Assembly: GCA_965198235.1 (NCBI GenBank)
Contig: OZ240248.1
Span: forward strand, 4,896,001-4,960,000
Source: Candidatus Poribacteria bacterium
GTDB taxonomy: Bacteria > Poribacteria > WGA-4E > WGA-3G
Length of the DNA: 64,000 nt
Direction of reading: 5' to 3'
The translations under genes were made by a program, and so were the position numbers. Positions within the stretch are counted from its first letter, which is position 1, and each line of letters opens with the position of its first letter. Positions 15,842-52,965 of this stretch are shown in pieces. Below the pieces are notes generated by a model. The model ran no database searches and was not told the DNA's origin. It was given only the letters and a program-made list of their open reading frames with translations.

Positions 15842-16393
15842 AACGTGAGCTTGATAAAAAGTCTTGTAGGTGTTTTTGCTTGGGTGTTTCCCCCAGGTTG
15901 AACGGGAATCAAGTAAAACGTGGATAGAAAAGACACCGATCAAGTTCAGTAGGAAACCTGAAGCCACTAAAGAACGAGTGAAACCCAACGCTTTTTACTT
16001 CCAACACGATGCGTCTGTTGGGTTTCGCTATATCACTCTCTATCAACGATTCGCAGAAAGGCGTAATTTCCTGTATAAACGCAAGGGGTTTACCGCTCAA
16101 CCCAACCTACGGAAACCATATTCAGATTTTTAATTATCAAACTCACATTTTTAACGTGGGTTCGACATAAGAAATTGCTTCATCATGTAGGTTCAAACGA
16201 AAGTGAGACACAACACCAAAACGCATACTGCGGGAGTATATCTGTCATCAAATCGGCGATAGATGTAATACGTCGTGTCGAATTTCTCTAAATCTTTAAG
16301 TCGAACTCACGTTATTAAAGACACAATTTTTAGGCGAAACGTTACATCACCTGAAAAAAAGGATTTTATCAGATTTTTTATCGAACTCACGTT
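15842..16393. repeat. Cluster of MITE-like elements with AACGTGAGTTCGA...TCGAACTCACGTT terminal inverted repeats enclosing REP-like hairpins
   Basis: TIR copies at about 15842, 16138-16150, 16153, 16301-16313 and 16381-16393; internal GTAGGTTG...CCCAACCTAC and GAAACCCAAC/GTTGGGTTTC inverted pairs. Confidence 0.7.
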
Positions 16394-16570
16394 ATTTTAA
16401 TTTCTATTTTTTGTTTTTAATTTGACAAAATTTTGGATATTTTTGATAATAATTGAAGGTATATTGTGTAACAGAAGTTTAAGGCACAGATACTTCTGTC
16501 TCAAAAATTTTAACCTCCAAATATAAAAAAGGAGGTTCGGTTTGGTTATTCGCAACGCAAAGGACAGAAT

Positions 16571-17356
16571 ATGTTAGGGGCAATTATCGGGGATATTGTC
16601 GGTTCGATCTATGAGCCTAAAGATCGCCGGATTAAAACCAAAGATTTCCCTTTTTTCGGTGAGGACTGCCGTTTCACAGATGATTCGGTTTGCACGACTG
16701 CTGTCGCTGATACTCTCTTACACAATCTCCCGGCAGCGGGGACGATGCGGAAGTGGGGGAAACGGTATCCGAAGTGCGGTTTCAGCCAAATATTTAAAAA
16801 CTGGATCTATTCCGAGGCGGATGCACCCAACTGCACTTTCCGTAACGGCGCGGCGATGCGCGTTTCACCCGCGGCATTTCTGAACCGAGACGATTTGGGG
16901 GCAGCACTCGTCGCTGCTGACAAAGTGACCGTTATCAGCCATGACCATCCTGAAGGCATAAGAGGTGCTCGGGCGACAACTCACGCCATCTGGCTCGCCT
17001 TCCGAGGCGAAAGTCCTACAAGTATCCGCGAGGTTATCGCTGCCGAATACGGCTACGATTTGACAAGGACGGTGGACGACATCCGTCCCAGTTATGCTTT
17101 CGATATGACGTGCCAAGGCACAGTCCCACAGGCGGTTACGTGTGCTTTGGAATCAGAAAATTATGAAGATGCCGTGCGTAACGCTGTATCTCTCGGTGGA
17201 GACTCCGATACTCTTGGTTCGATTGCCGGTGCTGTCGCAGAAGCACTGCACGGTATTCCAAACGATATTAAAGAAGAAGCAAAGGTCGGCTATCTCGCCA
17301 AGGCACCTGACATTCTTGAAGTAATCTCGGAGATGTATCGAACATCAGACGGTTAA
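16571..17356 (+). CDS. ADP-ribosylglycohydrolase family protein
   Basis: MLGAIIGDIVGS, FTDDS, NGAAMRVSP, GGDSDT motifs. Confidence 0.95.
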   Translation: MLGAIIGDIVGSIYEPKDRRIKTKDFPFFGEDCRFTDDSVCTTAVADTLLHNLPAAGTMRKWGKRYPKCGFSQIFKNWIYSEADAPNCTFRNGAAMRVSPAAFLNRDDLGAALVAADKVTVISHDHPEGIRGARATTHAIWLAFRGESPTSIREVIAAEYGYDLTRTVDDIRPSYAFDMTCQGTVPQAVTCALESENYEDAVRNAVSLGGDSDTLGSIAGAVAEALHGIPNDIKEEAKVGYLAKAPDILEVISEMYRTSDG

Positions 17357-17381
17357 ATCTGTAGAAGCGCGTACACACTTT

Positions 17382-19115
17382 ATGGAGGCACTCGCGTTTA
17401 ATACCACTTTGAAGCGTGATAGGTTTTACCACTGCCGTGTTTTAGAATGTGGTCAGCCGATTGCGATTATAACCTGTTTCATTCTGTTACTCCTCCTCAT
17501 CTCGCTTCCCGTACTATCAATAGAACCCTCTATCCATTTCACAGATGTTACCGATATAGCCGGCATCCATTTTACGCACGCCAATGGTGCAACAGGTGAG
17601 TTTCATCTGCCGGAGACACTCGGTGCTGGTGGGGCGTTCCTTGATTATAATAACGATGGCTACTTGGATCTTTACCTCGTCAATAGTGCTGCGCCAAGTG
17701 TGCTTTTCCGAAATAACGGTGATGGCACTTTCACAGATGTTACTGAGTCTGCTAAAGTCGACAATCAAGGGAGTTATGGACACGGCGTTGCGTGTGGGGA
17801 TTACGACAATGACGGTTACGTGGACATTTATGTAACCAATTTCGGTACGAACCGGCTCTATCATAACAACGGCGACGGGACGTTCACCGATGTTACGACT
17901 CAGGCAAATGTAGGCGATACCCGTTGGAGTAGTAGCGCGACTTTTTTCGATTACGACAGCGATGGCTACCTCGATCTCTACGTTGTTAACTACGTCAACT
18001 ATAGGTTAGATGCTTCCGCTCCTATCTGTTTTGAGAGTCCAGCTTTTGGGGCAACCGAGAAGGTTCGCGGTTACTGTCACCCAAAGCACTTTGAAGGCGC
18101 ACCCGATAGACTCTACCGAAACAACGGCGATGGCACCTTTACCGATGCTACAGATGCCGCCAACATTCGGGATCCGGGTGGAATGTTTCTCGGCAAAGGA
18201 TTAGGTGTTGTTGCCGCAGATTTTGATGCCGATGGCAATCCCGACATTTACGTCGCCAACGATGACACGCCAAATTATCTCTTCTATAACAAAGGCGATG
18301 GGACGTTCGCTGAAATCGCTATCCTCACAGGTTGTGCCTACAGCGCGGATGGCATAGCCCAAGCCGGTATGGGTGTTGACGCGGGGGATTATAACGGCGA
18401 TGGTTTTCTTGATCTCTTCGTCACCAATTTTTCCTACGAGACAAACACCCTTTATCGGAATAACGGAGACGGCACTTTCACCGATGTCAGTTATAAAGCG
18501 CGGCTTGGTGAAGAGAGTTATCTCTTTTTAGGATTCGGTACCGGATTCTTCGACCCTGATAACAATGGATCCCTTGATATTTTTGTCGCGAATGGACATA
18601 TTTTTCCAAATGTTGAGCGGACCACAGATGTCCTCTCATACAAACAACCGAATCAGCTCTACTGGAATCAAGACGATGGCACGTTTATCGAGATGCGATT
18701 TGAGGGTCAACGTGCTGTCAGCCGCGGGACCCTTTTCGGCGATTATGACAACGATGGTGACACAGACCTTTTTGTCACGCAGTTGAATGACAAGGTGACG
18801 CTCCTCCGAAATGAGAACCGCACTTCCAACAACTGGCTGCGTCTCAAACTGATCGGCACCCGAAGCAATCGCGATAGTATCGGCACACGTGTTACATTGA
18901 CACTCGGTGCTGAATCCCAAACGCGTGAAGTTCACCGAGGATACAGTTATCTCAGTAGCCATGATCCAAGGCTGCTCTTCGGGCTTGGAGAGCGAACCGT
19001 TGTGGATAAACTTCAGATCCACTGGCAAAGTGGTGTTGTGCAGATATTGGAAAACCTCGCGGCGAATCAAGAACTTGTAGTGACCGAACCTCTTTCAGAA
19101 TTAAGAGTAAAATAA
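17382..19115 (+). CDS. CRTAC1 family protein (FG-GAP repeats + ASPIC/UnbV)
   Basis: Repeated DYDNDG.DLYV / LYRNNGDGTFTDVT; C-terminal SYLSSHDPRLLFGLG; start codon uncertain. Confidence 0.9.
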   Translation: MEALAFNTTLKRDRFYHCRVLECGQPIAIITCFILLLLLISLPVLSIEPSIHFTDVTDIAGIHFTHANGATGEFHLPETLGAGGAFLDYNNDGYLDLYLVNSAAPSVLFRNNGDGTFTDVTESAKVDNQGSYGHGVACGDYDNDGYVDIYVTNFGTNRLYHNNGDGTFTDVTTQANVGDTRWSSSATFFDYDSDGYLDLYVVNYVNYRLDASAPICFESPAFGATEKVRGYCHPKHFEGAPDRLYRNNGDGTFTDATDAANIRDPGGMFLGKGLGVVAADFDADGNPDIYVANDDTPNYLFYNKGDGTFAEIAILTGCAYSADGIAQAGMGVDAGDYNGDGFLDLFVTNFSYETNTLYRNNGDGTFTDVSYKARLGEESYLFLGFGTGFFDPDNNGSLDIFVANGHIFPNVERTTDVLSYKQPNQLYWNQDDGTFIEMRFEGQRAVSRGTLFGDYDNDGDTDLFVTQLNDKVTLLRNENRTSNNWLRLKLIGTRSNRDSIGTRVTLTLGAESQTREVHRGYSYLSSHDPRLLFGLGERTVVDKLQIHWQSGVVQILENLAANQELVVTEPLSELRVK

Positions 19116-19176
19116 CCTTGTAAATCCTCAAACCCAGTCGAGAATTAACCAGAAACCTGCCCGAAACGTTTCTCTA

Positions 19177-19226
19177 ATTATGGGACTCCGGGCATCGCTC
19201 CACTCCGTTTCGCGATGGTTTTCGGC
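19177..19226 (+). repeat. Dispersed ~50-bp repeat (ATGGGNCTCC...CTCCACTCCGTTTCG...GG), also at about 29745-29795 and 30613-30665
   Basis: Three similar copies seen by eye, plus an inverted partial copy (TTAACCAGAAACCTGCCCGAAACG) at about 19145-19168. Confidence 0.6.
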
Positions 19227-21328: not shown

Positions 21329-21483
21329 TTTAATGGCTGTAGGGCAAGATTTCCGTGCCTCACCTCTGTCTTATTCCATTCTGTGGGCGAGGTTTCCCAA
21401 CCTCGCCCGCGAGCGTTTGACAAAATATTTACATACCCGGAGTATCTTCTTGACGCGAAAATAGCCAATAGGAGGAACTGATA

Positions 21484-21747: not shown

Positions 21748-21772
21748 CCTTTTACAGAGGGAGGAATCAACA

Positions 21773-27056: not shown

Positions 27057-27220
27057 TAGTTATCAGTCGCCAGCAGTCAGCCGACAGCCGTGGGCTTCTC
27101 CGCCGATAGCCAATAGTGTCGGGAATCGGAGCGTTTTTGCTTGGGTATTTCTGTGGATTTCCCTGCGGATTTCCCCCTCCTACAGAACAGCCGACAGCTG
27201 ATGGTTTCCGACAGCCAATC
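27057..27220. repeat. Heptamer tandem repeat arms (TCAGYYR / CYGAYAR) flanking a REP-like hairpin with an insert
   Basis: Same 7-mer family at about 19247, 34497-34645, 36874-36917, 46415-46580, 52905-52965, 59777-59822 and 62755-62870. Confidence 0.7.
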
Positions 27221-38713: not shown

Positions 38714-39308
38714 ATAAGCAAGTTCAAATTATATATTCGTCAATTTTTGTTGTGAGATTGAGCGTTTTGCCTAACAACAGAATTATATCACAATAGGAAG
38801 TATATGTCAAACATTCCTTTGGAGGTGTTAGGCTCATTTATGGCAAATTTTAGAAAGATGTAGCCATTTCAATGTGTGCGGTCTAACAAACGCCTCTCCT
38901 CCGCTAGCGAGGTGTTTTTGATAGGGTGTTTCCCCTAGTAACCTCGCCCTTCGCTACTGTATCGGTAATTGTAAAATCTACCCTAAATAGTTGATGGTGT
39001 GTCAGGATACTTCCAATTTACCAGGGTGCGTAAAGTTTTTGGCATTAACCCTTCCGTTTCTCTTGTGGAGGGTCTAACCCGATTTACCCGTGGATTTGAC
39101 ACGAGGGCTCCCAAAAATCCGCGAAATCCGTGTCATCCGCGACAATTCGCGATTCAGACGAAAAAATAACGTATCACCCAAGGAACACCCCACAGCCCTG
39201 CTTTTTGACAAAATATTTACACATTCAATTTGCCACTTGCCTTTTAAAGATAAGGTGTTTATACTGTAAGTGGAGACCTCACGAATCCAATAGAAAGGGA
39301 GTGGAACA

Positions 39309-40636: not shown

Positions 40637-40672
40637 TTGAAAATAGGTGTCAGGTTGTATATAATACACCTA
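40637..40672 (+). promoter_or_regulatory. hicBA promoter with overlapping inverted-repeat operator
   Basis: TTGAAA-17 nt-TATAAT; TAGGTGT (40644-40650) and ACACCTA (40666-40672) flank the -10 box. Confidence 0.65.
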
Positions 40673-40691
40673 AACAAAAAAGGAGAATCCC

Positions 40692-41086: not shown

Positions 41087-41117
41087 TTGAAAAATCTGTG
41101 CCTAACGCGGAGAAAAA

Positions 41118-42497
41118 ATGCCCCGAAAAACCGATAGACCGAACGTTCTCTTTATCATGTCAGATCAGCATCGATACGATTATCTGGAGACTGACGAGAA
41201 TGCGCCTACCGCACTCAATACCCCAAGCTTACGACGCTTAGCGGAAGCGGGCGTGAGTTTCCCAAACTGCACAGTGAATGCACCTGTCTGTGCGCCGTCA
41301 CGTATCGCTCTTGCATCGGGATTGCAACCTTCACGAGTGGGGGCAGTAGATAATGGAAGTTTCCTACCGGCCACCGTGCCGACCTACTATCAGCAACTTC
41401 GCGACTACGGCTATCGCGTCGGATGTGTCGGTAAACTCGATCTTGCCAAGCCCGATGGCTATAATGGACGTTACGGCGACCGACCTCGTACCTATAGTTG
41501 GGGGTTCACACATCCTGAAGAGTGTGAAGGCAAAATGCATGCTGGAAGTTCACCAACACCTATCGGTCCTTATACGCACTACCTTCAGGAGAAAGGGGCA
41601 CTCAAAGCGTTCCACGAAGATTATCAGAAACGCAGTAGCGGCGGTTGGATTAAAGGCGGTTCTCACGATTCTGTCCTCTCGACAGAAGATTTCGCCGATA
41701 CTTATATCGGCAGACGGGCAACGGAATTTATTGAGAACATCCCTGATGATTTTCCATGGCATCTGTTCGTGAGTTTCGTTGGACCGCATGATCCGTTCGA
41801 TCCGCCTACGGAGTATGGGGACAAGTATCGGAATGCAGAGATGCCTCCGGCTATCGTTAGCGATATGGAAAGGAAGCCTGAATGGGTGAAACGGCGCGTC
41901 GTCGATATCAGTCCTGAGGAGATTACTGTAACACGTCAACAGTACTGCGCTGCGACGGAACTCATTGATGACCAAATCGGAGAAATGCTTCGCGTACTTG
42001 AACAACGTGGGATGCTCGACAATACCTATATCATTTATTCAAGTGACCACGGAGAAATGCTTGGTGACCACGGGCTTTACACCAAAAGTGTCGCGTATGA
42101 AGCGTCGCTCAGAGTCCCACTTCTCGTCGCCGGACCCGGCATTGCGGGAAACCAGATTTCGGAGAGTTTGGTCGAGTTGATTGATCTGAATCCGACGATA
42201 TGTGAATTAGTGGGTGTGCCTGTGTTACCGCGTATTGACGCGAGGTCTATTGCACCTATTCTTCGTGGTGAAACTGAAACGCACCGCACCGAAACCGTGA
42301 GTGCCCTCCGAAACTTCCGTTGTATTCGGACGGCAACGCATAAACTCATCGAAAACTACAGCGATGTGACGGAGCTATACGATTTAGAGAACGATCCGTG
42401 CGAACTCCGCAACATCGCCGAGTCGGAACGTGAAATCGCTCGGACACTCAGTGGGCGTTTGGCGAGGCGGTTCCGCTCAGAGTTGAGCACGGATTGA
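41118..42497 (+). CDS. Sulfatase (formylglycine-dependent)
   Basis: PNVLFIMSDQHR, CAPSR, PHDP, SDHGEMLGDHG. Confidence 0.93.
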   Translation: MPRKTDRPNVLFIMSDQHRYDYLETDENAPTALNTPSLRRLAEAGVSFPNCTVNAPVCAPSRIALASGLQPSRVGAVDNGSFLPATVPTYYQQLRDYGYRVGCVGKLDLAKPDGYNGRYGDRPRTYSWGFTHPEECEGKMHAGSSPTPIGPYTHYLQEKGALKAFHEDYQKRSSGGWIKGGSHDSVLSTEDFADTYIGRRATEFIENIPDDFPWHLFVSFVGPHDPFDPPTEYGDKYRNAEMPPAIVSDMERKPEWVKRRVVDISPEEITVTRQQYCAATELIDDQIGEMLRVLEQRGMLDNTYIIYSSDHGEMLGDHGLYTKSVAYEASLRVPLLVAGPGIAGNQISESLVELIDLNPTICELVGVPVLPRIDARSIAPILRGETETHRTETVSALRNFRCIRTATHKLIENYSDVTELYDLENDPCELRNIAESEREIARTLSGRLARRFRSELSTD

Positions 42498-42507
42498 ATA
42501 AATTCAA

Positions 42508-43698
42508 ATGGATACAAACCTGACTTATGACGCGAAGCGTGCGTACCACCACATTACGCAACTCGCTTTCCCGAGGCTGGTGGGCAGCACGGGTGAATCA
42601 AAGGCGCAGGACTACATCGTTCAGCAATTTGCGGGGTTAGGGCTGGATGTCTCACGAGAATCCTTTTCTTTTACAAAATTCCCCGCGGAGGTATTACCTC
42701 GTCTCCTGTGTAGTCTTTTCGTTCCGGTAGTCCTCTCTGTCCCTTGGCTCGGTGACCGGTTTCCGATACTTGTATGCCTTGCCTGTCTACTCAGCCTCTC
42801 TGTAGCATTGCTTTTTACGCAGTGGCAGAAACGGTTTGAAGGGTTGTATGATGTCGGCAGAACGCATCATTCGGAAAACATTGTTGCAACGAACGGTAGG
42901 AAACCCAATGATAGTCCCCCGGCGTTGCTGTTTGTCGCACATTACGACTCCAAGTCACAGGTGTTACCGATCGCTGTTCGGGCTGCGGCTTACGGCATAG
43001 CGATTGTTGGGCTTATTGCATTGACAACTGTAATGGTGATTGAGGTCGCCACCTTTGCTTGGTTCCCCGATTACATTACCCTCGTCTGGTCACCCGATTC
43101 CATTGTCTGGAGTGTCGCCGGTGTTACTACTTTTTGCCTGCTACTTTTACAAATCAATTTCACACAGAACCTTTCTCCTGGGGGTTTTGATAATGCCTCT
43201 GGCGTTGGTGTTATGCTTGAAGTAGCGGGCGTAGTGATGGCGCGTGGTGAAAAAAAATCTGTTACGTTCCTTGCCGCTGGTGCGGAAGAATACGGTATGT
43301 GCGGTGCGTTACGCTATATCCAAGCACACACTCGCGAATATGACCGAGATCGCACCTACGTTATTAACTTAGATGGGCTCGGCGTTGGGAACGCCGTTAG
43401 CGTCGTCACGCGCTATGGAATCCCGCCGGTTCGCACGGCATATATGTTAGCTGAGATGTTCCGAACATCGGGTAAAGCACTTGACACACAGGTTTCGGAG
43501 CGTTATTTGCCGATCGGTGTCGGGTTAGACAGCATTCCGATTGCAAGCCATGGATTTGAAACAGTTACGTTGACGGCGGGAGATGTGGGAAGTGTCGCTT
43601 TAAAAGTCCATTCAAAGCAGGATAGATGCGACCTGCTCGATACGGAAAGTCTACAACAGATGGGTGAGTTAATTGTCAATGTCGTTGAACGCATATAA
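42508..43698 (+). CDS. Membrane-bound peptidase M28 family
   Basis: AHYDS, DNASG, AEE, NLD and H motifs with TM segments. Confidence 0.88.
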   Translation: MDTNLTYDAKRAYHHITQLAFPRLVGSTGESKAQDYIVQQFAGLGLDVSRESFSFTKFPAEVLPRLLCSLFVPVVLSVPWLGDRFPILVCLACLLSLSVALLFTQWQKRFEGLYDVGRTHHSENIVATNGRKPNDSPPALLFVAHYDSKSQVLPIAVRAAAYGIAIVGLIALTTVMVIEVATFAWFPDYITLVWSPDSIVWSVAGVTTFCLLLLQINFTQNLSPGGFDNASGVGVMLEVAGVVMARGEKKSVTFLAAGAEEYGMCGALRYIQAHTREYDRDRTYVINLDGLGVGNAVSVVTRYGIPPVRTAYMLAEMFRTSGKALDTQVSERYLPIGVGLDSIPIASHGFETVTLTAGDVGSVALKVHSKQDRCDLLDTESLQQMGELIVNVVERI

Positions 43699-44338
43699 AA
43701 ATCCACTTCCAGTCACAGGGGTCATCCTCGCGGGTGGTAAGAGTCGACGGATGGGAGAGAATAAGGCGTTGATGCAACTCGGAGACGATTCGCTCATCGA
43801 ACACGTTATCCGCTGTATGCGCCTTATCACGGACGAACTTCTGCTTGTCACCAATAGCCCTACTGAATATGCACACCTCGGTGTGTCGATGCACGGCGAT
43901 ATTCTCCCCGGCACTGGCGCGTTGGGAGGCATCTATACCGGTTTGACGCGTGCTTCGTATGATATTGTACTCTGTGCTGCGTGCGATAGTCCGTTTTTAG
44001 AGTCGAAACTACTCACCTATCTTGTCTCTGCTCTGGGAGCATATGATGCAGTGATGCCTTATACCTATAAGGAAATCAACGCCTATAGCGACGATACACA
44101 GATAACACTCCAGACGTTGTGTGCAGCCTATTCTAAACGCTGTCTATCTATTATTGAGTTGATGTTACGGGACTCCGAGTTGCGCGTCCATGCCCTACAG
44201 GAACGCGCACACATAAAGCGTGTTTCACCTGAAGTCTGGCGGGAGTTTGACTCGGAGGGCATGTCCTTTTTCAATATCAACACGCCTGAAGACTTTGAGA
44301 GAGCAAATTCCTATATGAGATCCCAAGCTGCGTGTTAA
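43673..44338 (+). CDS. mobA: Molybdenum cofactor guanylyltransferase
   Basis: LAGGKSRRMG.NKA, GALGGIYTG, ACD.PF, FFNINTPED. Confidence 0.93.
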   Translation: MSMSLNAYKNPLPVTGVILAGGKSRRMGENKALMQLGDDSLIEHVIRCMRLITDELLLVTNSPTEYAHLGVSMHGDILPGTGALGGIYTGLTRASYDIVLCAACDSPFLESKLLTYLVSALGAYDAVMPYTYKEINAYSDDTQITLQTLCAAYSKRCLSIIELMLRDSELRVHALQERAHIKRVSPEVWREFDSEGMSFFNINTPEDFERANSYMRSQAAC

Positions 44339-44562
44339 GTCTGTCTTACACTTTCCCTGAGTCGTGCGCGCTTGTGTTTAGATTTCGATGTCCTTTACGT
44401 TCTCAGAAATCTGAATTTTCGTTTTAAACCTTTTCGCTGAAAACTCCTCTCTTTATAACTGAAATTTAATTAGTTAGAGTTGCAAAATTACGAATATGCA
44501 ACCTTCTTCCCTATAATATGTGTCACGTGTCACAAGGTAATGTTGTTGATTGGAGGGGACGC

Positions 44563-44835
44563 ATGAAAAACGATGATGCGAAATGGATTGAACGCATCTT
44601 GGCAGGCGATAAAGCGGGGGAAAGCGTAATCATTAAGTCGTTAGCAACAGCGGAGGATGCTGTTTATGGAGCGAATGATGACGGCATCTATCACTTAAAA
44701 AAGGAAACAGGGACTTGGGAACAAATTGTGCCTGAAATTCCAGATGCGATAACTTCTCTCGTTGTTGATGGAGATACCTTTTACGTTGGTACGGAACATC
44801 GTGGTGTGCTCCGTCTTGAACGTGCCAATCAGTAG
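44563..44835 (+). pseudogene. In-frame deletion relic of an ECF sigma factor / beta-propeller fusion gene
   Basis: GGAGG RBS; MKNDDAKWIERILAGD (ECF sigma N-terminus) joined directly to terminal propeller blades (VYGA...GIY...WEQ...ITSLVVDGDTFYVGT..RGV). Confidence 0.6.
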
Positions 44836-44902
44836 ACGTGTACGCTTGTAGCAGATGCTATCTAAAGTGATAGGGAACGAAATGCATATAGAGGTATGAT
44901 TA

Positions 44903-46414
44903 ATGCTAACAACACTCATCCGCCGAGAACTCCTCGACAACCTAATGACGTTTCGATTTGCGGTAGCTGTTTTTATTATGCTGTTGCTTGTGGTTGCCAA
45001 TACCGTTGTGCTTATTAAGGATTATGAGCAGCGTTTGGCAAGCCATAACGCTGCTGTCAAAGGGCATCAGCGGCAGCTTCAGGAGAAAAAAACGTATTCC
45101 GCAGGGACAGAGAAATTATTTGTCGACCGGCCTCCGAACCCAGTAAGCATTTTCAATGTTGGGTTCGATAAGCAACTCGGAAATCAGATTCGGGTATCAC
45201 ATACTTATGTGCCATCGCTGTGGGATGCCGGAATGCATGGGTCGGATAATCCGTTTATGGATATGTTCGCCTCCATGGATATTGTTTTTATCTTTGAGGT
45301 GATCCTGAGTTTGTTAGCACTGATTTTTGCCTACGATACCCTCGCGGGTGAATACGAGCGTGGCACATTACGTCTGGTCTTGACATCGCACGTCCATCGC
45401 GGGCATATCCTATTTGCGAAGTACATCAGTGCAATGCTCTGCCTACTCGCGCCATTGCTAATGAGCCTGCTTCTCGCAGTCATTTTGCTGACGACGACCT
45501 CCTCCATTTCTCTGAACGCCGATGATTTTTTACGGATCGGCGGGATTATTTTAACAACCGTTGTGTATCTTTCTATATTCTATCTCATCGGGCTGCTGAT
45601 TTCGGCGGCGACGCGTCGAACACGTACCGCCTTGATGCTCTCCATGTTCGTGTGGGGGTTTTTAGTCCTTGTCTATCCGAATATGATTCTTGCCGTGGTC
45701 CCGCAACCGGATGCACCGCAGGCACGCCGTGCATCCGCCTTTAATCAAATTGAACAGATATGGGAGGAATTTGACAGAAATCGGAAACACTTCCTCGCCA
45801 CTGACGCTTTTCCTGGCGAAGATTGGCATTTTAAAATTATGGGATCTGGGTGGTACGGTGCATATCTTTGGGGTAGCCCCAGACACCTATACTATATCTA
45901 CGAAAGCAGAATGGAGGCTAATAGCCTTGGCGAGGGATCTGAACCCAAGGTTCCACACGCCCAGAATTACTTCGGTTTCCTCGGTCCCCACGTTATTGGG
46001 ACAGCGGACCAAACGTGGTTTATCCGAAAACCTGCACTGGAAGACATCTTCATTCAACCCGCAAATGTGGAGCGACTCTGGCTAAAACTCTCGCCTGTGG
46101 GGCTGTATGACACCGCAACACAAGCCTGGGCTGGCACCGACTTGCTCGGTGTCAGAGATTTTTTCAAGGCTGCGAGACGATACAGACAGCACGTGATTGA
46201 CTATTTCTATGATGAAGAGGTGTTCAGATCTCGACAGTGGTTTTCTTCGGACAAAGGTGCCGCAGATTGGAGCAATCTACCACAGTTCTCTTTTCAAAGG
46301 GTCAATGCGAATACAAATGCAAAGCGAGCGTTACCGGACGTATGTTTACTGCTCATGATTAATATAGTTCTGTTCATCATAATATTTCTGATTTTCATCA
46401 AAAGTGAAGTGTAG
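44903..46414 (+). CDS. ABC-2 type transporter permease
   Basis: RRELLDNL..FRF N-terminus; AYD.LAGE.ERGTLRL; multiple TMs. Confidence 0.85.
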   Translation: MLTTLIRRELLDNLMTFRFAVAVFIMLLLVVANTVVLIKDYEQRLASHNAAVKGHQRQLQEKKTYSAGTEKLFVDRPPNPVSIFNVGFDKQLGNQIRVSHTYVPSLWDAGMHGSDNPFMDMFASMDIVFIFEVILSLLALIFAYDTLAGEYERGTLRLVLTSHVHRGHILFAKYISAMLCLLAPLLMSLLLAVILLTTTSSISLNADDFLRIGGIILTTVVYLSIFYLIGLLISAATRRTRTALMLSMFVWGFLVLVYPNMILAVVPQPDAPQARRASAFNQIEQIWEEFDRNRKHFLATDAFPGEDWHFKIMGSGWYGAYLWGSPRHLYYIYESRMEANSLGEGSEPKVPHAQNYFGFLGPHVIGTADQTWFIRKPALEDIFIQPANVERLWLKLSPVGLYDTATQAWAGTDLLGVRDFFKAARRYRQHVIDYFYDEEVFRSRQWFSSDKGAADWSNLPQFSFQRVNANTNAKRALPDVCLLLMINIVLFIIIFLIFIKSEV

Positions 46415-46697
46415 AGTGGCAGTCAGCGGTCAGGTCGCTGCGCTTTCAGCGATCAGTTAAGAAACATATATGGCGATTGCTCGTGTGCTTACTACCGCAA
46501 ACTGCTGATTACCGACTGCCCTTACGAATATGGCACAACCGCTCTTTGCTGAAGGCTGATTACTGACGGTTTTCGACAGCCCTTCTGCCGATAAACGTGT
46601 CGAATGAAGGTAAGCCCGACCAACGGGCGGGCTGGATCTACGAAGGAAATCGTTTTTTCATAGATCTCCTGAACGAACCGCAAGGAACATTAAAAGC

Positions 46698-48125
46698 ATG
46701 ATTTGGCATATCACTAAACGCGAACTTTACGATAACCTCAATAGCCTCCGATTTGCCTTGGCAACGGTGTTGTTGCTCGGTTTGATGCTGACCAACGCGA
46801 TTGTGCATCTCCGGGAACACCCGAAGCGCGTCCAGAACTATCACAATGCCATCAACAGATATCAGAATCGCTTAGCCTCTCATGCCGAGGACAGTTTGTA
46901 CAAACTCGCGGAGCAAGGACCCGGATACCTACACAAGAAACCATCCGACCTCCGTTTCTGTGCAGAGGGCGGCGAGACCTTTTTGCCAAGCAATGTGGAA
47001 GGAGGTTACAGCCGTTGGGGGGAGGGAGGTGAACCGCGTTTAGAAAGTTTTTGGATACTGGCATATCATTCGGCTACCCCCGATCTACATAACGTCCGCC
47101 CAAATGTCACCAAAGTGGATTGGGGTTTTATCATCGGCTACGTCTTAAGTCTCATCGCGCTCCTATTTACCTTCGATTCGATTTCCTACGAGCGCGAGCA
47201 AGGCACACTGCGATTGACGCTCGCGAATTCGATTCCGCGGCACACCGTCCTGATTGGCAAGTTTTTAGGGGCATTAATCAGTATAAACATTCCGTTTACA
47301 CTTGCCGTCTTGGTGAACCTCTTAGTAATTTCCACGTCGAGCGATGTACACCTCGATGCGGAGGCTTGGGGACGTTTAGGTCTCATTTTCTTTATTACGC
47401 TCTTGTATATAAGTCTATTTCTCGCATTGGGACTGCTCGTGTCGGCACGTGTGCAACGGAGTGCGGTGAGTCTTGTGATACTTCTATTGGTTTGGGTCAC
47501 CTTTGTCGTTTTTATGCCCAGTACGCTCGTTTCGATTGCGGGACGTTCCACACCGCCAAAGTCTGCTCTCGGATTTTCTGAACGCAGTGCCCAACTTGAG
47601 GAGGAACTTGAGCGCGAATACTACACGCTTCGGTATGGTTCAAATAAGAGTTTAACCCAAATCCAAACATTACAAGTGGCAGGCGAGTACGTCACTAAAG
47701 ATGCAGCAGGGCAGGAACGCCTGCACGAAGAACGCCTAAAACAGCGAATTTCTCAGGTCCGTCGGGCGCGTGCAATCACCCAAATTTCGCCTGTCACCAT
47801 TTTCCAGCACCTCCTTGAATCCTTTGCCGGAACGGGGTTTGAGCGGCATTTGCAATTTTTAGAAAACGTTCAATCTTACGCCCAAGAATTTCGAGTTTTC
47901 ATTGTTGACACTGATCAAGCCGATCCCGAGAGCCTCCATATCTCTGGGGTTCGTGAGGGGATGTCACAGAAGCCTGTCCCTCCAGCGGCGATTCCGAAAT
48001 TTGAAGATACCTTGAGTCTCAGCAAGGATTTCAACACAGCGGCAGTCGATCTTTTGTTGCTCACGCTGTTTATCATAGTCCTTCTATCGGGAGCGTATCT
48101 CGCTTTTGTGCGAGTTGAGATATGA
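46698..48125 (+). CDS. ABC-2 type transporter permease
   Basis: KRELYDNL.SLRF; FDSIS.EREQGTLRL; GKFLG; multiple TMs. Confidence 0.85.
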   Translation: MIWHITKRELYDNLNSLRFALATVLLLGLMLTNAIVHLREHPKRVQNYHNAINRYQNRLASHAEDSLYKLAEQGPGYLHKKPSDLRFCAEGGETFLPSNVEGGYSRWGEGGEPRLESFWILAYHSATPDLHNVRPNVTKVDWGFIIGYVLSLIALLFTFDSISYEREQGTLRLTLANSIPRHTVLIGKFLGALISINIPFTLAVLVNLLVISTSSDVHLDAEAWGRLGLIFFITLLYISLFLALGLLVSARVQRSAVSLVILLLVWVTFVVFMPSTLVSIAGRSTPPKSALGFSERSAQLEEELEREYYTLRYGSNKSLTQIQTLQVAGEYVTKDAAGQERLHEERLKQRISQVRRARAITQISPVTIFQHLLESFAGTGFERHLQFLENVQSYAQEFRVFIVDTDQADPESLHISGVREGMSQKPVPPAAIPKFEDTLSLSKDFNTAAVDLLLLTLFIIVLLSGAYLAFVRVEI

Positions 48126-48356
48126 TACAAATTGCCTATTCCAGAATTTCTTAATGTCCTGTTCTTTACTGCTGCACAGTTATCCTTTCTCAAATGCGAT
48201 CTCAAATAAGAACTCTTTTGACTCTTTTCGTTAAATCTGCTATCATTTTTGCAATTGATGTGGTGACGCGCGGTTAAGAGTATTTTCATCAGTTCCCAAA
48301 CCATTATTTAGCCAAAACCCTCTTATTTTTGGCTAATCTCCCAAAAGGAGTTTATC

Positions 48357-49151
48357 ATGAAAAGAGTTTTTGTGATTTTCGCGGTGACTGGTATACTCAT
48401 CAGTTTTGCACTGTGTAGTAAAGCCAATCCGCCGGACGGATTAGTGCTGCATCTGAGTTTTGACAAAAATACCATTGATGGCGATACCGTAAAAGATCAG
48501 TCTGAAGAAGGTAATGATGGAACGATTAACGGTTCCGCAAAGATGGCCGCAGGAAAGCATGGCGAAGCGTTGGAGTTTGATGGCAAGGATGACTTTGTCG
48601 AAGTACCACTGGAAGATTCGATTACCTTTTCCACTGGCGATTCATTAACAGTTCAAGTGTGGATAAAAACAGATGATGAGCCGCCAAAGAACGATGGGAT
48701 TGTCGGGAATTATCGTCCGGGCACTGACGCGGTTTGGATACTCTCTGTCAGCGGTGACAACCCTGCGACGCGTGGCAAGATGGCCTTTAGTGTCCGGGAT
48801 AAGGGACGTGCGAATAGTGCTGGGATAACTTCGCCGGACTTCCTGAACGATGACAAATGGCATGTCCTCGCTGGTGTCCGAGACCAAAAAGCAAAAAAGA
48901 TCCGATTCTATGTGGATGACAAGTTGATTGATGAAGTTGATGACAACACAAAGGACATTAACAGCGGGCAGTCGATTTGGGTGGGAGAGCACCTGAATCG
49001 ATTTTACAAGGGGTTGATTGATGAAGTGAAGGTGTGGAATCGTCCGTTGACCGCTGAGGAACTTAAACAGTCGCAACTGCAACCGTCTCCAGTTGATGCC
49101 TCCGGAAAGTTGACGACCGTATGGGGAGCGATCAAAACAGCGTACCGATAA
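48357..49151 (+). CDS. Secreted LamG-like jellyroll protein with VDASGKLTTVWGAIK C-terminal motif
   Basis: GLVLHLSFD, ALEFDG, WH..AGV, GLIDEVKVWNRPL. Confidence 0.88.
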   Translation: MKRVFVIFAVTGILISFALCSKANPPDGLVLHLSFDKNTIDGDTVKDQSEEGNDGTINGSAKMAAGKHGEALEFDGKDDFVEVPLEDSITFSTGDSLTVQVWIKTDDEPPKNDGIVGNYRPGTDAVWILSVSGDNPATRGKMAFSVRDKGRANSAGITSPDFLNDDKWHVLAGVRDQKAKKIRFYVDDKLIDEVDDNTKDINSGQSIWVGEHLNRFYKGLIDEVKVWNRPLTAEELKQSQLQPSPVDASGKLTTVWGAIKTAYR

Positions 49152-49156
49152 TACCG

Positions 49157-51436
49157 CTAAAAATTAAGCTTGTACAGAAACTTCACGTTCCGCCCCGGTT
49201 CCGGCATTACCGCTTTGATGAGGGACAGGTGTTCACGGTATGCTGTATCAAAGAGGTTCTCAATCTCGAAAACCAGTGTATTTTCAAGTTGCCACCACGA
49301 GAAATTGAGATAACCGCCCACATCATGGACAAGGTATCCATCCGTGGGTTCCTCGAATTTGCCGAGACGGGTTTGACTCCCCGCAAAACGGGAGGTAACG
49401 TGGAAATGGAAAGGGGAGGGTGTATAGCTGAAGACGAATTTACCGTTCAGAGGGGGAATGCGTTCCAATGGTTTACCGTTGGCTTCAACCGTTCCGTTGA
49501 CGTAACTCATATTGAGCTGTAGGTGAAAGTGCGGTAAGACTTCGCCGTCAATCCGGACCTCTGCACCATTCATTACAACATCCTGTCCGGTATATTGGTA
49601 AATCCACAACCATCCGGCGGTGCCACTTCCCCACTCTTTTTTTCCAGTATTGGTCGGCGTGAGATAGCCGTGTATATGGTTCTGGAAGAGGGTGAGGTTT
49701 AGATTGAATCTGTCTATTGCGTAGCGTCCAAACGCTTCGATACCGTACCCATCCTCAGGTTCCAGTGCCACATTACCTATTTCGTACGAGTAGGCTGCGA
49801 GATGCGGTCCATCGCTGAAAAGTTCCTCAATACCGGGGGCGCGAAATGTTTTCATTATAGTACTGCCGGTACTCAACCTGTCTGTCCAATGATAAATTCC
49901 AGATGCGGCACCCGATACGCCGTTAAAGTCGCGCTGTTGCACCCTTCCGGCTCGGATGACTGTGCCATCATCACTAAACGGTTCTGCCCGTCTAATGTCG
50001 TAGCGGATTGCGCCTTGTAAGGTGAGACGGTCGAAATCTCGCTGATTCAGATAGAAACCCGCGAGAGCAAACTCACGTGTATGGGGTGTCCAGTAAAACC
50101 CGCCTGTGGCATGATCGCGATACTCACCCCAAACACCCATGATGGCGTTGTCTAACACATGAGCCATCGCCGAGAAGTTGTAGGTTAGCACGCCGAATTC
50201 CACCCCGAGCGTGCCGTTTGACTCTAACTCTTGATGTTGGTAACTGGTGTGGACTGTTTGGAGTTTAACTTTATCAATCCATGGACGATTGAAACGATAT
50301 TCCATCTGTCCTTCGTAGCGTTGCCTGTCCAGTGCGATGTTAACACCGCTGATATGTCCTTCAGGGGAACCGGGGATGCCGTAATCTGAACGGTAGCTGC
50401 CACCTGAGACACCAATGTAACCCCAATCTTTGATGAATGATGCGCCTGTTGAAAAATTGACGTTGGAGAGGCTGGTATTTTCCAATGTTCCAATTGGTGT
50501 TTGTGTATCTGTGGCAAGTCGACGGTTCCATTCGAGTTTCCCCGCAAACGGGCCGAATGGTACAACAAAACCTGTTGTTGCTGTCCATCCGGAATTTACA
50601 GATTCGCCTTGGAACGTTAGATTTATATCAGGATGCTTTGGTAGAACTTCGGGAATGTTGTTACGTTTAACGTTGATAACGCCGCCCAATGTGCTTGAGC
50701 CATAAATGAGTGCTCCGGGACCACGCGTAATTTCAACACCTTCAGCAGTCGTTGGGTCAATTGATACGGCATGGTCGGCACTGGATGCGGATTTATCACC
50801 TGTCCGCTCACCGTTTTCAAGAATGAGTAGCCTATCACCCCCCAATCCCCGAATGATGGGGCGCGCGGCTGCCCGCCCCATCGTCCGTTGTGAGATGCCG
50901 GTTTCATCTGACAACGTATCTGCCAACGTCATACCCAATTTCCTTTGGAGTTCTGCGTCCTGCAGTGCTAAATCAGTTGTTTTCTCAAATTTCGCGAGAT
51001 CTCCGGTTGCATCAGACACCCTAATTGTTTCTAATTGATACACTAACACCTTCAATTCGGTCTGGACATAAGGGGTGGATGCGTTGACATCAATCACCTG
51101 TTCAAGCTGCTGATAGTCGGCTTTCGTGAATTGAAGCGTCTGCTTGCCTTCTGGCACGGTATCGAGTTGAAACTGGCCGTTTTCGTCAGTACGGGTACTC
51201 TTCTCAAGTCCAGCGATATAGACGACAACCCCCACAAGTCGGGAGCGACTCTGGGTGTCGATGACCTCCCCGTGCAGTGTGTGTGTTGGAACTTGATCGC
51301 TCTGAGCATCGTTTGTATCACAGCACAGAAACACAATTCCCATCGCTGCAAATAGGTAAATGCACTTAAAAAATGCACCTACCAGAGAAGATTTAGACAG
51401 AAAGGCACAAATACCTGACTGCTCAATAACTCGCAT
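49157..51436 (-). CDS. TonB-dependent receptor, ZnuD-like (metal uptake)
   Basis: Carboxypeptidase-like N-domain, RPIIRGLGGDR plug, DHAVSIDP, ELFSDGPH, HLS, C-terminal Phe. Confidence 0.9.
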   Translation of the reverse strand: MRVIEQSGICAFLSKSSLVGAFFKCIYLFAAMGIVFLCCDTNDAQSDQVPTHTLHGEVIDTQSRSRLVGVVVYIAGLEKSTRTDENGQFQLDTVPEGKQTLQFTKADYQQLEQVIDVNASTPYVQTELKVLVYQLETIRVSDATGDLAKFEKTTDLALQDAELQRKLGMTLADTLSDETGISQRTMGRAAARPIIRGLGGDRLLILENGERTGDKSASSADHAVSIDPTTAEGVEITRGPGALIYGSSTLGGVINVKRNNIPEVLPKHPDINLTFQGESVNSGWTATTGFVVPFGPFAGKLEWNRRLATDTQTPIGTLENTSLSNVNFSTGASFIKDWGYIGVSGGSYRSDYGIPGSPEGHISGVNIALDRQRYEGQMEYRFNRPWIDKVKLQTVHTSYQHQELESNGTLGVEFGVLTYNFSAMAHVLDNAIMGVWGEYRDHATGGFYWTPHTREFALAGFYLNQRDFDRLTLQGAIRYDIRRAEPFSDDGTVIRAGRVQQRDFNGVSGAASGIYHWTDRLSTGSTIMKTFRAPGIEELFSDGPHLAAYSYEIGNVALEPEDGYGIEAFGRYAIDRFNLNLTLFQNHIHGYLTPTNTGKKEWGSGTAGWLWIYQYTGQDVVMNGAEVRIDGEVLPHFHLQLNMSYVNGTVEANGKPLERIPPLNGKFVFSYTPSPFHFHVTSRFAGSQTRLGKFEEPTDGYLVHDVGGYLNFSWWQLENTLVFEIENLFDTAYREHLSLIKAVMPEPGRNVKFLYKLNF

Positions 51437-51448
51437 GGAGGTCCCTCC

Positions 51449-52039
51449 TTATTGGACAGTTACCGGTATCAGAAGTGCCGCCGTGAAATCGGGATGATCC
51501 CCGTGAAGAAGTTGGAGTCTGATTTTCGTTGTCCCTATTTTCAGACCAACGACTTCAAACCGCCACTGCTCTTCTTCACCGTGTTCGTCGTTTCCGTGTT
51601 CGTCTTCGGCGTGTCCCTCTCCATCTTCAGACAGATGGATGTCAATAATGGCGGGATCGTAATCCGACAAGCCCAAGCTGAAGGTCTCCTCTTCGTCATG
51701 TCCATGTTCGTCTTCCTCCTCTTCGCCAACGTGGATTTCTGTACCGCTCGCGTCAAGAAATACGACATGGACCTCAATCTCTTTACCCGCTCCAACGGTG
51801 AGACCGCCGCTATCGGTGCCTTGAAACTGACGATAAACCTCCGATCCGTCAACTTCTAAGGCAAAGCCATCAGCGTCCGCATGAAGTTGTGTCTCTTCTT
51901 CCTCCTGAGCGTGATTATCAACAATAGGGTTATCATCTTCACCACAACCCCCAACAAAGGAGAAGATGGCAACAAAGCTTAGTAACATTAATCGAGAAAT
52001 GGTAACAGAAAAATCGTGCCCAAAAAAGTGCGCAAACAT
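51449..52039 (-). CDS. His/Glu-rich lipoprotein, probable metal-binding partner of the TonB receptor
   Basis: Lipobox VGGC; HADADG, EDEHGHDEEE, HAEDEHGNDEHG, LLHGDHPDF. Confidence 0.8.
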   Translation of the reverse strand: MFAHFFGHDFSVTISRLMLLSFVAIFSFVGGCGEDDNPIVDNHAQEEEETQLHADADGFALEVDGSEVYRQFQGTDSGGLTVGAGKEIEVHVVFLDASGTEIHVGEEEEDEHGHDEEETFSLGLSDYDPAIIDIHLSEDGEGHAEDEHGNDEHGEEEQWRFEVVGLKIGTTKIRLQLLHGDHPDFTAALLIPVTVQ

Positions 52040-52323
52040 TGTATTCTCCTATTTATCTGATGACACACGGCGTGTGCCTATTACTTTGTAAAACGAATTG
52101 CTCTTAATAGATGGCATGCACGCGAACGGTCTAAAACGCACATTAGCATGCCGTGGTATCTCATGCATTTTTAGGCAATAGGGATCTCATAGGTTCCCGA
52201 AAGAGATACCATTCATACAGAGTCGGGTCTTGCAAAGCAGCGGTGTGCAAAGGGAGGGCGAGTGTAGGTACTCCCAAACCCTTTGGACAACATAGCAATA
52301 TAAAATAGAAACAGATTTTGCCT

Positions 52324-52662
52324 TCAAGCAAAATCTGGAAGTTCATTGGAGAATACAGGTGGGGCACGACTCCGCGTGTTCGCGGTGAGTCTTAAAGGAA
52401 GAAAAACGGTTTCATAAAGCGGAAGTGGCGTACTCGGAAGGAACGGAGAGGCGAGTGCAAAGGACGCAACTTCACCTCCGACGTGCTGACTGTTATAGAA
52501 ACAGGCTGTACAGATATCCGCAGAGTGGGAGTGTTCAGTATGACCGTGCGTTAGTGCGTTGACACTCAGCAACGCAACATAACAACATAAAATTATTAAA
52601 ATGCCGGTTTTCAAACCACGCCCAAATGTAAGCGTGTTCGGGAAGGTCATACCGTTTCTCAT
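52324..52662 (-). CDS. DUF2946/CruR-like leader protein with CxxC and RAPP ribosome-arrest motif
   Basis: TM segment, HGHTEHSH, CTAC, Pro-rich linker, RSRAPP near the C-terminus; first gene of the TonB operon; start at 52662 or 52650. Confidence 0.75.
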   Translation of the reverse strand: MRNGMTFPNTLTFGRGLKTGILIILCCYVALLSVNALTHGHTEHSHSADICTACFYNSQHVGGEVASFALASPFLPSTPLPLYETVFLPLRLTANTRSRAPPVFSNELPDFA

Positions 52663-52681
52663 AACCCATGCCTGTGTTAAT

Positions 52682-52744
52682 ATTGAAGATAAGATTTCCA
52701 ATAAACTTGCGATAAATTATATCATACGATTGTGTCAATGTCAA
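52682..52744 (-). promoter_or_regulatory. Perfect sigma70 promoter with overlapping Fur/Zur-like palindromes
   Basis: Minus strand TTGACA (52744-52739)-17 nt-TATAAT (52721-52716) with TGn extension; imperfect palindromes TGATATAA-T-TTATCGCA over the -10 box and ATTGGAAAT-CTT-ATCTTCAAT just downstream. Confidence 0.7.
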
Positions 52745-52795
52745 ATAAACTTGAAAAGATGCTATCGGCTTTCAGAAACCAATACCCTCTTCCCA

Positions 52796-52965
52796 TAGGA
52801 GCGAGTGTTTTTGCTTGGGGTGTTTTTGCTTGGGGTTTTTGATAGGGGTCTTTGCTTGGGCGTTTCTGCGGATTTCTGCGGATTTCCCCATGCTCGCGAT
52901 TCTTACTGACGGCTGACCGCTGACTGCTATTCTTACTGACAACTGATAACTGATAACTGATAACT
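52796..52965 (+). repeat. REP-like hairpin containing four tandem GTTTTTGCTTGGGG-type units, followed by (CTGATAA)n
   Basis: GCGAG (52801-52805)...CTCGC (52893-52897) arms around the insert; ctgacaa-ctgataa x3 downstream. Confidence 0.8.

Follow-up and report, generated by a model that had tools for sequence, protein, structure and literature searches.

How could one sequence of about 20 nucleotides come to lie inside several unrelated hairpin repeats of a single chromosome? The question is raised by a stretch of 64,000 nucleotides from a Candidatus Poribacteria bacterium (assembly GCA_965198235.1, contig OZ240248.1, positions 4,896,001 to 4,960,000), here called the window. A preliminary description had noted a short motif at four places in the window, each within a different host repeat, and had proposed that a fixed template is copied, with stuttering, into breaks at hairpins. 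We refer to the motif as element E and traced it through the genome of the window (5.17 Mb in two contigs, 48% G+C, 96.3% complete) and through related genomes. The reading that we favour, and hold to be probable though far from certain, is that element E is a tiny, non-autonomous dispersed repeat, itself a mobile and copied DNA element, resembling the small dispersed repeats (SDRs) of cyanobacteria.

A genus-specific repeat nested in many hosts

The basic unit of element E measures 19-27 nt and consists of a head, GTTTTTG(CTT/ATA)GGG, a tail, T(G/A)TTTC, and a short pyrimidine-rich end that adds 3-8 nt to a unit of 19 nt. The degenerate 19-mer GTTTTTGMTWGGGTRTTTC matched the window five times against 0.14 expected, a count that none of 100 shuffles reached; the matches were exact at 15872, 27133 and 38914 and carried 2-3 mismatches at 52822 and 52848. 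The four sites (Table 1) exist as first described, as do the uninterrupted relatives named with them (GTAGGTT at 16187, the hairpins at 21386 and 63803, and the reverse complement of 62875-62902), and all four are intergenic by crude open reading frame (ORF) calls. We lettered the host repeats separately from the element. The copy at 38914 lies between the host A arms GCGAGGT (38907-38913) and AACCTCGC (38940-38947); the uninterrupted form at 21386 and 63803 reads GGCGAGGTTTCC(C/G)AACCTCGCC. Host C of the array at 27133, GTCGGGAATCGGAG..CTCCTACAG with heptamer tandem repeats on its flanks, corresponds in reverse complement to the empty copy at 62875-62902. The array at 52807-52889, whose heads are CTT, CTT, ATA and again CTT, this last one bearing a T>C change, is bounded by GGAGCGAG and CTCGCGA of host B, a repetitive extragenic palindromic (REP) sequence tagged with GTAG/ATAG. 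The copy at 15872, with AGGT on both sides (15868-15871 and 15895-15898), forms the 5' edge of a repeat of about 300 nt (window 15842-16149). That repeat has two more genome copies, 92% and 99% identical, and partial copies beginning just past the E site occur in many species of the genus.

At the compared window sites the intergenic DNA of the nearest species is without host repeats; the spacer at 38914, for example, measures 67 nt there vs 384 nt here. Short-read-run contigs placed on window 38500-53200 collapse at repeats, with a summed depth above 10,000 at 52820, and contig joints such as 52819>52883 are not assignable to this locus, so that neither filled and empty alleles nor polymorphism in unit number can be judged from them. 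Contigs from an RNA library also show element E beside host sequences, where DNA carry-over is possible.

Across the genome the head core occurs 369 times, in 251 merged arrays. Exact 19-mers number 192 (109 forward, 83 reverse), and the control pattern gave none. The motif had been called strand-biased; with 139 arrays on the + strand and 112 on the - strand this did not hold as a property of the element, and 250-kb bins revealed no regional orientation bias. Given this near-balance, the four + copies in the window reflect local chance. Cumulative GC skew is irregular, and no origin, terminus or replichores can be defined from it.

All 24 sampled species of the same genus carry the exact 19-mer, at 6-136 copies each. 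It was absent from 16 genomes of seven other genera of the order, in which matches at up to 2 mismatches numbered 0-3 per genome vs 0-2 for the control pattern. Element E is therefore specific to one genus of Candidatus Poribacteria. At least 116 stretches of a public collection contain the exact 19-mer; among the matches listed, 80 titles name 77 Candidatus Poribacteria, two metagenome-assembled genomes (MAGs) of an 'uncultured bacterium' and one Pyrinomonadales MAG, and by our own estimate a few chance matches are expected in a collection of that size. The presence of the motif in chromosome-level and short-read MAGs from many submitters rules out an adapter or assembly artefact, a check that the preliminary description had itself suggested. 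In the genome of the window 192 of 287 copies within 2 mismatches are exact (67%) vs 31-45% in the three other copy-rich genomes for which this share was worked out, which points to recent activity.

At least 12 different host repeats contain element E, which lies either at the tip or at the 3' foot of their hairpins. Regular expressions for 12 host contexts, with a further class for arrays adjoining another E array, took in 150 of the 251 arrays; Table 1 itemises part of these, other contexts supplying the balance, and many of the remaining 101 belong to host D, found in 5' untranslated regions (5' UTRs). Among the host types are GTAG-tagged REPs, elements in 5' UTRs that resemble miniature inverted-repeat transposable elements (MITEs), and reverse-complement copies of element E itself; some copies lie in single-copy DNA, including an ORF. 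The same hosts carry element E in many species. By the crude ORF calls, which cover 86% of the genome, 188 of the 251 arrays fall outside ORFs. Both 60-nt flanks, taken from 6 and 12 nt away, are repeated in the genome at 106 arrays and single-copy at 60, the latter figure not being a number of non-repeat sites, as many of these copies still lie in a short REP hairpin.

Modules, joins and orthologous sites

Arrays are built from a few modules: the head H (13 nt), often linked to the next head by G or GT so that head units measure 13-15 nt, the tail t, module u (TGCGGATTTC, 10 nt), module v (TGCGTATTTC) and a re-entry head h, TGCGTATTG(CTT/ATA)GGG. The simple form Ht accounts for 126 of the 251 arrays and a truncated or interrupted H alone for 24; further forms are HHtu (12), HHt (9), Htht (8), HHtuu (8), Htu (7) and HHthtu (5), and the longest arrays reach about 190 nt. 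In the 58 multi-unit arrays that lack h, the number of heads hardly correlates with the number of tails (Spearman 0.23, p 0.09), so the two modules reiterate in tandem and independently, as the preliminary description had supposed. Strict nesting, in which every head is paired with a tail, is ruled out by this near absence of correlation; the tails also count against it, the outer one always being GATTTC and that of simple copies mostly GTTTC. CTT (274) and ATA (119) are the two discrete forms of the middle triplet, and intermediates are few (CTG 17, ATT 7). Both variants are present in other species, and within arrays they are mixed in every order, so that the arrays are not simple local duplications. 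Element E is made of direct repeats and is not a palindrome, and terminal inverted repeats are absent: the GT-linked head and the tail alike start with GGGTGTTT, and each tail unit contains TTTCTGCG. Such built-in repeats would ease slippage and unequal pairing.

A second mini-element, X, consists of AATGTAATACAAGGAATGG and ATTTAGTCTATTCCCAGACTAAATCCGG, each reiterated once or twice, and measures 47-90 nt. It lies inside element E at 10 loci, in place of TTGGG between GTTTTTGC and TGTTTC, and alone at 4 loci (examples on contig C1 of the genome at 753187, 895467, 1052294 and 3727189); the window holds no match to it.

By folding, element E lacks a structure of its own. The folds of three of the four window copies were no better than shuffles. 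The fourth, filled host A at 38914, combines the host stem with an inner stem of 5 bp (TAGGG/CCCTA) at -8.7 kcal/mol (z -3.2), and is weaker than the empty host A hairpin at -13.8 kcal/mol (z -6.0). A hairpin of the element's own, CTTGGG..CCCAAG, kept by covariation, is ruled out: ATA copies carry CCCAAG, CCCAGG and CCCTAG alike, and the CTT and ATA variants do not covary with the right end. An Rfam scan of the window matched no family.

The joins were compared in 122 simple copies. The upstream flank is G-rich and reads R-G-(T/G), with G at position -2 in 118 copies, T (74) or G (46) at -1 and G (89) or A (32) at -3, and the same G-(T/G) context precedes each reiterated head unit. On the 3' side TTTC is followed by CCC in 44 copies, TTC in 33 and TTT in 15, then usually by A. 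Junctions are sharp on the 5' side and fuzzy on the 3' side, and a few tip bases are lost.

Filled and empty copies within the genome are paralogous and their loops vary, which leaves statements about single bases uncertain; with that proviso, the insertion first described is not a clean one. The same short sequence does sit in many unrelated hairpin repeats, but usually takes the place of 1-8 host tip bases (hosts A, C, D, F and G and a GAAG/CTTC hairpin). In host A, GGCGAGGT TT(C/G) AAACCTCGCC becomes GGCGAGGT, array, CCCTAG and AAACCTCGCC; in host D, GGAGGG CG GATCTACGG becomes GGAGGG, array, TTCA and GAT; and the 8-nt loop of the GAAG/CTTC hairpin is missing. In the RAYT-flanking type of REP, element E lies at the hairpin foot, and there CCCCGTAGGGG TGA AATGTCTGTAG becomes GGGG, array, TTC and AAT. 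Host E is represented by 21 empty copies (GCAC GAGTT GATGG) and 14 filled ones (GAGT, array, TTC and GATGG), with one T replaced and filled middles of 26 nt (4 copies), 36 nt (1), 49 nt (6), 72 nt (2) and 82 nt (1). The AGGT duplication reported at 15872 is present, yet the look of a clean insertion with an AGGT repeat is confined to sites of the host G type, GTAGGT|T.

Copying of whole arrays is seen most directly in a 58-nt array composed of H-CTT, H-CTT, H-ATA, t and u. Five copies (three exact, two with one mismatch) lie at unrelated places in the genome of the window, and none was found in 40 other species of the genus. All five begin at the same G, run through ..GATTTCCCC and share the right end ..TTTCCCC; an AGGT or AGT repeat flanks two of them. 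The recurrence of one complex array at five unrelated sites implies that such arrays are copied as units from genomic donors and not stuttered anew, contrary to the fixed template stuttering at each site that had been proposed.

Four of the five 58-nt sites were compared with five related species. At C1 4768747, inside a 706-aa ORF, two species are empty (CTGTAGTT-TCGGTTTCATC and CTGTAGAT-TGGGTTTC), which bears out the expectation that empty orthologous alleles should exist. Of the other three relatives one holds a simple copy, one a simple copy with five changes and one a decayed Ht-u, where the genome of the window has its 58-nt array; the reading frame is kept in both cases, with a net gain of 21 nt for the simple copy and of 60 nt here. 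The site at 2775704 lies shortly before a gene, and there element E is present in all six species: simple with 2-4 changes in four relatives, a decayed longer array in the fifth, and pristine and complex in the genome of the window. At 1098221 a simple copy lies within the same host in the nearest species, and the host is missing from three others; at 1415073 the nearest species has a degenerate array. Sites can thus be empty in some species. Orthologous copies differ by 2-5 changes in 19 nt; element E is old in the genus, its single copies decaying by point mutation at about a neutral pace, and arrays at a given site are replaced or extended by sequence that was copied from other places in that genome. 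The 706-aa ORF itself (C1 4767873-4769993; locus L186 627-2747) reads through the array as ..DETWGNPQRKHPIKNPKQKPQAKTPTDT.., in a linker rich in acidic residues, and has about 20 residues more than in the empty species.

This decay bears on whether element E might be a functional site, a protein- or RNA-binding motif kept by selection in DNA or in 5' UTRs. Its consensus is invariant across species, it is frequent in elements just upstream of start codons, and among the 188 arrays outside ORFs the downstream gene is co-oriented with it in 113 and opposed in 75. Orthologous copies nevertheless decay, unit number and order vary freely, both strands and also coding sequence are occupied, and filling weakens the host A hairpin. 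We regard selection for such a site as very improbable.

Enzymes and the route of spread

Searches of the genome of the window for RVT_1 (PF00078), Prim-Pol (PF09250), AEP primase (PF01896) and Ku (PF02735) gave no match at E <= 0.001; control genomes gave matches in these searches. The reverse transcriptase or primase type of enzyme that had been invoked is thus without a candidate in this 96.3%-complete genome. Six genes for Y1 (HUH) enzymes are present, namely three RAYTs and three IS605-type tnpA (Table 1). Each RAYT gene is flanked by inverted REPs, GCAC(T/C)CC..GG(A/G)GTGCTATGTCTATAG, of a type that also hosts element E. No copy of element E lies within 700 nt of any of the six, nor did a master template locus stand beside them, although no systematic search was made for a locus conserved across all species. 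RAYT homologues were found in 18 of the 24 E-bearing genomes and in 9 of 16 genomes of E-free genera; the six E-bearing genomes in which none was found include a single-contig genome with 136 exact copies. By distribution a RAYT is neither necessary nor sufficient, although an enzyme may have acted in the past.

Templated insertions and telomerase-type addition take their sequence from nearby or from an RNA template carried by a reverse transcriptase. A dedicated polymerase might extend a 3' end at a nicked hairpin by copying a fixed template of RNA or DNA, realigning and so stuttering as telomerase does, before the break is sealed. Much in the joins recalls this: the sharp start always after GG(G/T), as before each repeated head, which would be microhomology at the start; short units iterated, heads and tails independently; and the loss of a few host bases. 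The consensus and its two discrete variants are moreover the same across 24 species even though orthologous copies decay. Yet this constancy, over hundreds of sites and dozens of species, also sets element E apart from templated insertions, and there is no RVT_1, Prim-Pol, AEP primase or Ku match in the genome and no copy close to the Y1 genes. The lineage-specific 58-nt array at five sites points to genomic arrays as donors, a single template would not produce CTT and ATA mixed in every order, and a genome-wide strand bias is lacking. Templated addition therefore seems to us quite unlikely.

The nuclease part of the earlier proposal, an HUH or RAYT enzyme, fared better in that three RAYT genes exist, and less well in that their presence does not track the motif. 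A Y1 transposase, whether a RAYT or an IS200/IS605 TnpA, might act in trans, cutting after R-G-K and at the pyrimidine end and inserting into single-stranded hairpin DNA without target duplication. The genome encodes both types of enzyme, one host is the RAYT-type REP with element E at the hairpin foot, and GTAG stands within 12 nt upstream of 43 of the 251 arrays vs 3% of control positions. The left flank R-G-K is fixed in nearly all simple copies (G at -2 in 118 of 122), and together with a defined end and no regular duplication it resembles the insertion of IS200/IS605 elements 3' of a target tetranucleotide, as is said of IS608. The right join, however, is untidy, host bases are replaced at it, and element E has no subterminal hairpins of its own, unlike a palindrome-associated transposable element (PATE) of the IS200/IS605 type; its folds beat shuffles only where a host stem contributes. 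Since RAYT homologues were also not found in six of the 24 E-bearing genomes and were found in nine of the 16 E-free ones, this route looks doubtful. Identity of element E with a REP, a REPIN (a unit composed of REPs) or a MITE was ruled out: it is not palindromic, is not linked to RAYT genes, and lacks terminal inverted repeats and a constant target-site duplication. REPs are palindromic units of 20-40 nt with a GTAG or CGTC tag, and here it is the hosts to which the tag belongs.

Several points weigh against a mobile element E. The hosts themselves are young and mobile, and much of the copy number of element E rides on them; copies of host E in the ribosomal-protein gene cluster, for instance, are absent from the orthologous sites of the nearest species, where aligned genes lie 0-16 nt apart. 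Independent insertions must therefore be far fewer than 251. A tree of 34 host E copies was unresolved, filled and empty copies being interspersed with 8 state changes vs 10.6 in shuffles, and may be compatible with a single origin of all the filled ones. Relatives already carry element E at three of the four compared 58-nt sites, so that the five copies could be conversions of older simple copies and not new insertions. The closest relatives compared were species 10-25% diverged in flanking DNA; at this distance junctions are not resolvable to the base, and no de novo insertion between near-identical strains was caught. No mobilising enzyme was found for element E, and the fixed left end and shared ..TTTCCCC right end of the 58-nt copies would fit a transposase that recognises termini at least as well as the copy-in route set out below.

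In part the same observations would suit an immobile element E that entered a few hosts long ago and has hitch-hiked since, with slippage and gene conversion producing both the variety of arrays and the identical ones: young and mobile hosts, repeated flanks at 106 of the 251 arrays, hosts shared among many species, replacement of older simple copies by the 58-nt array at three sites, and a host E tree that allows one origin. What such an account explains poorly is the occurrence in at least 12 unrelated host contexts, each family of which would require a separate entry into a G-rich hairpin position of one and the same kind. It also leaves aside the copies in single-copy DNA and inside an ORF whose orthologues are empty in two species, the insertion of element E into its own reverse-complement copies, and mini-element X, which behaves likewise inside element E. 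We consider hitch-hiking alone rather unlikely.

For a mobile, SDR-like element E we can offer a specific route only tentatively, as a possibility somewhat short of an even chance. Element E would spread at the DNA level by copy-in from existing genomic copies, and no reverse transcriptase would take part. Where replication or repair meets a hairpin, an exposed 3' end in GGG or GGT would prime by pairing with the identical GG(G/T) ahead of every donor head unit; the donor array would be copied and rejoined through a short pyrimidine run, with a few loop bases lost. Slippage and ectopic conversion at the built-in direct repeats could then insert, delete and exchange units. One could imagine instead a genus-specific machinery, neither reverse transcriptase nor classical transposase, that writes a defined 19-23-nt sequence at G-rich tips and feet of hairpins, priming on the three nucleotides GG(G/T) and realigning. 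This we think unlikely; if true, templated DNA-writing of a new class would have produced both elements, E and X, and might also account for the SDRs of cyanobacteria.

Table 1. Element E and its hosts in the window, Y1 enzyme genes on contig C1 of the genome, and arrays assigned to host contexts
Feature	Position	Strand	Arrays	Remarks
Simple element E: head GTTTTTGCTTGGG, one tail TGTTTC, CCCCC	window 15872..15894	+		preceded by GTAGGT
Array: one head, three tails (TATTTC, TGTGGATTTC, CCTGCGGATTTC), then CCCC	window 27133..27177	+		inside host C
Simple element E, ATA variant (GTTTTTGATAGGGTGTTTCCCC)	window 38914..38935	+		tip/loop of host A hairpin
Complex array: four heads, GTTTC, two TGCGGATTTC units, CCC	window 52807..52889	+		host B
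Host A, empty copy, 12-bp hairpin with 4-nt loop	window 21385..21409	+		fold -13.8 kcal/mol, z -6.0
Host A, empty copy (GGCGAGGTTTCCGAACCTCGCC)	window 63803..63824	+		
Host C, empty copy (GTAGGAGGGATCTCCGAATCCCGACTCC on +)	window 62875..62902	-		
GTAGGTTCAAACG, short look-alike of the 15872 target (GTAGGT/TGAACG)	window 16187..16199	+		match only about 10 nt
RAYT gene	C1 606798-607274			159-171 aa (range of the three)
RAYT gene	C1 1898763-1899239			159-171 aa (range of the three)
RAYT gene	C1 3853649-3854113			159-171 aa (range of the three)
IS605-type tnpA gene	C1 119838			then a tnpB-like ORF (by eye, no Pfam scan)
IS605-type tnpA gene	C1 4381488			then a tnpB-like ORF (by eye, no Pfam scan)
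IS605-type tnpA gene	C1 4792784			then a tnpB-like ORF (by eye, no Pfam scan)
GGCGAGG..CCTCGCC hairpins			19	
GTGGAGGG..GCCCAGGAG host			17	
5'-UTR stem GCACGAGT..GATGGTTAAC			14	
GTAGGT or GTAGGGG sites			13	
REP type flanking RAYT genes			13	
GTAGGAGCGAG..GCTCGCGA host			13	
GTGGGAGGGG..CCCCGAT host			12	
GGGAATCGGAG..CCTCCTAC host			12	
Reverse-complement copies of element E itself			8	

Accompanying repeats and known systems

Further kinds of repeat came to light alongside element E. Heptamer-like tandem repeats of the CAGTCAG/CCGACAG, CTGATAA and GCTGACT types surround host C and host B hairpins (window 27060-27100, 27180-27220, 52905-52965 and 62845-62875), an arrangement that resembles the heptamer repeats of filamentous cyanobacteria. 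A structured element of about 95 nt lies at window 28427-28515 and 46610-46697 (+) and has about 190 further copies in the genome, sometimes 3-4 in tandem. Its anchor CGAACCGCAAGG has 197 matches at up to 1 mismatch, a few of them expected by chance, and it matched no Rfam family in the window. The element ends ..ACCGAACCGCAAGGAAAATTAAAAA directly before start codons (ATG at window 46698), and its first hairpin keeps pairing through different sequences (GCCC/GGGC, GCCTGC/GCAGGC, GCTT/AAGC and AGCCC/GGGCT). Possible identities are a mobile element that serves as leader or ribosome-binding site and a cis-regulatory RNA so far undescribed. A repeat of about 130 nt, with a 15-bp stem (TTAACCATCAACTCG / CGAGTTGATGGTTAA), has 35 copies (for example C1 4170443, 4174397, 2051295 and 1703397). 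In 17 of the 35 an ORF starts 30-66 nt past the anchor ATGTTAAAGCAC (empty-site coordinates). The genes that follow are unrelated, their N-termini resembling by eye those of housekeeping proteins (ribosomal proteins L18 and S11, PanB, HemC, MurD, MnmE and TrkA), names that come from no search; the copies in the ribosomal-protein cluster are absent in the nearest species, which indicates a young and mobile repeat.

Which known system does element E resemble most? The mosaics of bacterial interspersed mosaic elements (BIMEs) in Escherichia coli, which Gilson and colleagues are said to have described in 1991, reportedly combine palindromic units with short conserved linker motifs. They share with element E short conserved non-palindromic motifs in variable number beside hairpin units; their linker motifs, however, are said to lie between hairpins and not at tips, and not alone in single-copy DNA or coding sequence. 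Closer are the SDRs, SDR1-8, that Elhai and colleagues reportedly found in 2008 in Nostoc punctiforme and relatives. These are said to be about 21-27 nt long, highly repeated and dispersed, and embedded in minitransposons, heptamer tandem repeats and their own copies, to be restricted to one coherent lineage, and to have moved recently by a mover not known. SDR4-6 reportedly share a secondary structure with compensatory changes, and an RNA intermediate is said to have been proposed. On these accounts, element E and SDRs have in common a length of about 20-27 nt, dispersal, nesting in repeats and in their own copies, restriction to a lineage and signs of recent mobility, as well as nearby heptamer tandem repeats (host C here). 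They differ in that element E belongs to another phylum, the likeness being at most one of kind, by description, and not of sequence family; in that it has no conserved fold or compensatory changes, unlike what is said of SDR4-6; in its two tandemly reiterating modules; and in that no reverse transcriptase matched in the genome of the window, whereas an RNA intermediate is proposed for SDRs.

By excerpts from the literature, SDRs are about 20 bp long and possibly mobile (PMC2884548), SDR5 inserts into HIP1 (PMC5861425), and of the cyanobacteria examined none outside Nostocaceae yielded an SDR-like repeat (the same excerpt of PMC5861425). GTAG-tagged REPs (Di Nocera et al. 2013, PMC3733652) and REPINs with their RAYTs (Bertels and Rainey 2011, PMC3116915), so far as excerpts of these papers describe them, are matched here by several GTAG-tagged hairpin hosts and three REP-flanked RAYTs, and intragenic in-frame copies occur as reported for REPs. 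Element E differs from them as a guest inside REPs that is not palindromic, does not lie beside RAYT genes and is distributed independently of RAYT homologues. A literature search limited to Poribacteria and REP brought up one unrelated review and no published account of these repeats. The preliminary description knew of nothing comparable; the SDRs of Nostocaceae are, on the reading favoured here, the same kind of thing, and element E belongs to this known, poorly understood kind and does not embody a new principle.

Elements of about 20 nt cannot encode anything and have barely room for recognition sites, and their spread has posed a puzzle ever since the cyanobacterial SDRs were described in 2008. 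A second, unrelated lineage shows that the phenomenon is not a cyanobacterial oddity, and the spread of one array form within a single species lineage adds to the data set. With hundreds of copies per genome, dozens of sequenced species, and orthologous sites that are empty, decayed or freshly overwritten, the mechanism becomes testable by comparative genomics and on simple hairpin substrates. Element E also shapes the genes of its bearers: hairpin repeats are altered by it, it is present in 5' UTR elements just ahead of start codons, and it lengthens one protein in frame by 7-20 residues.

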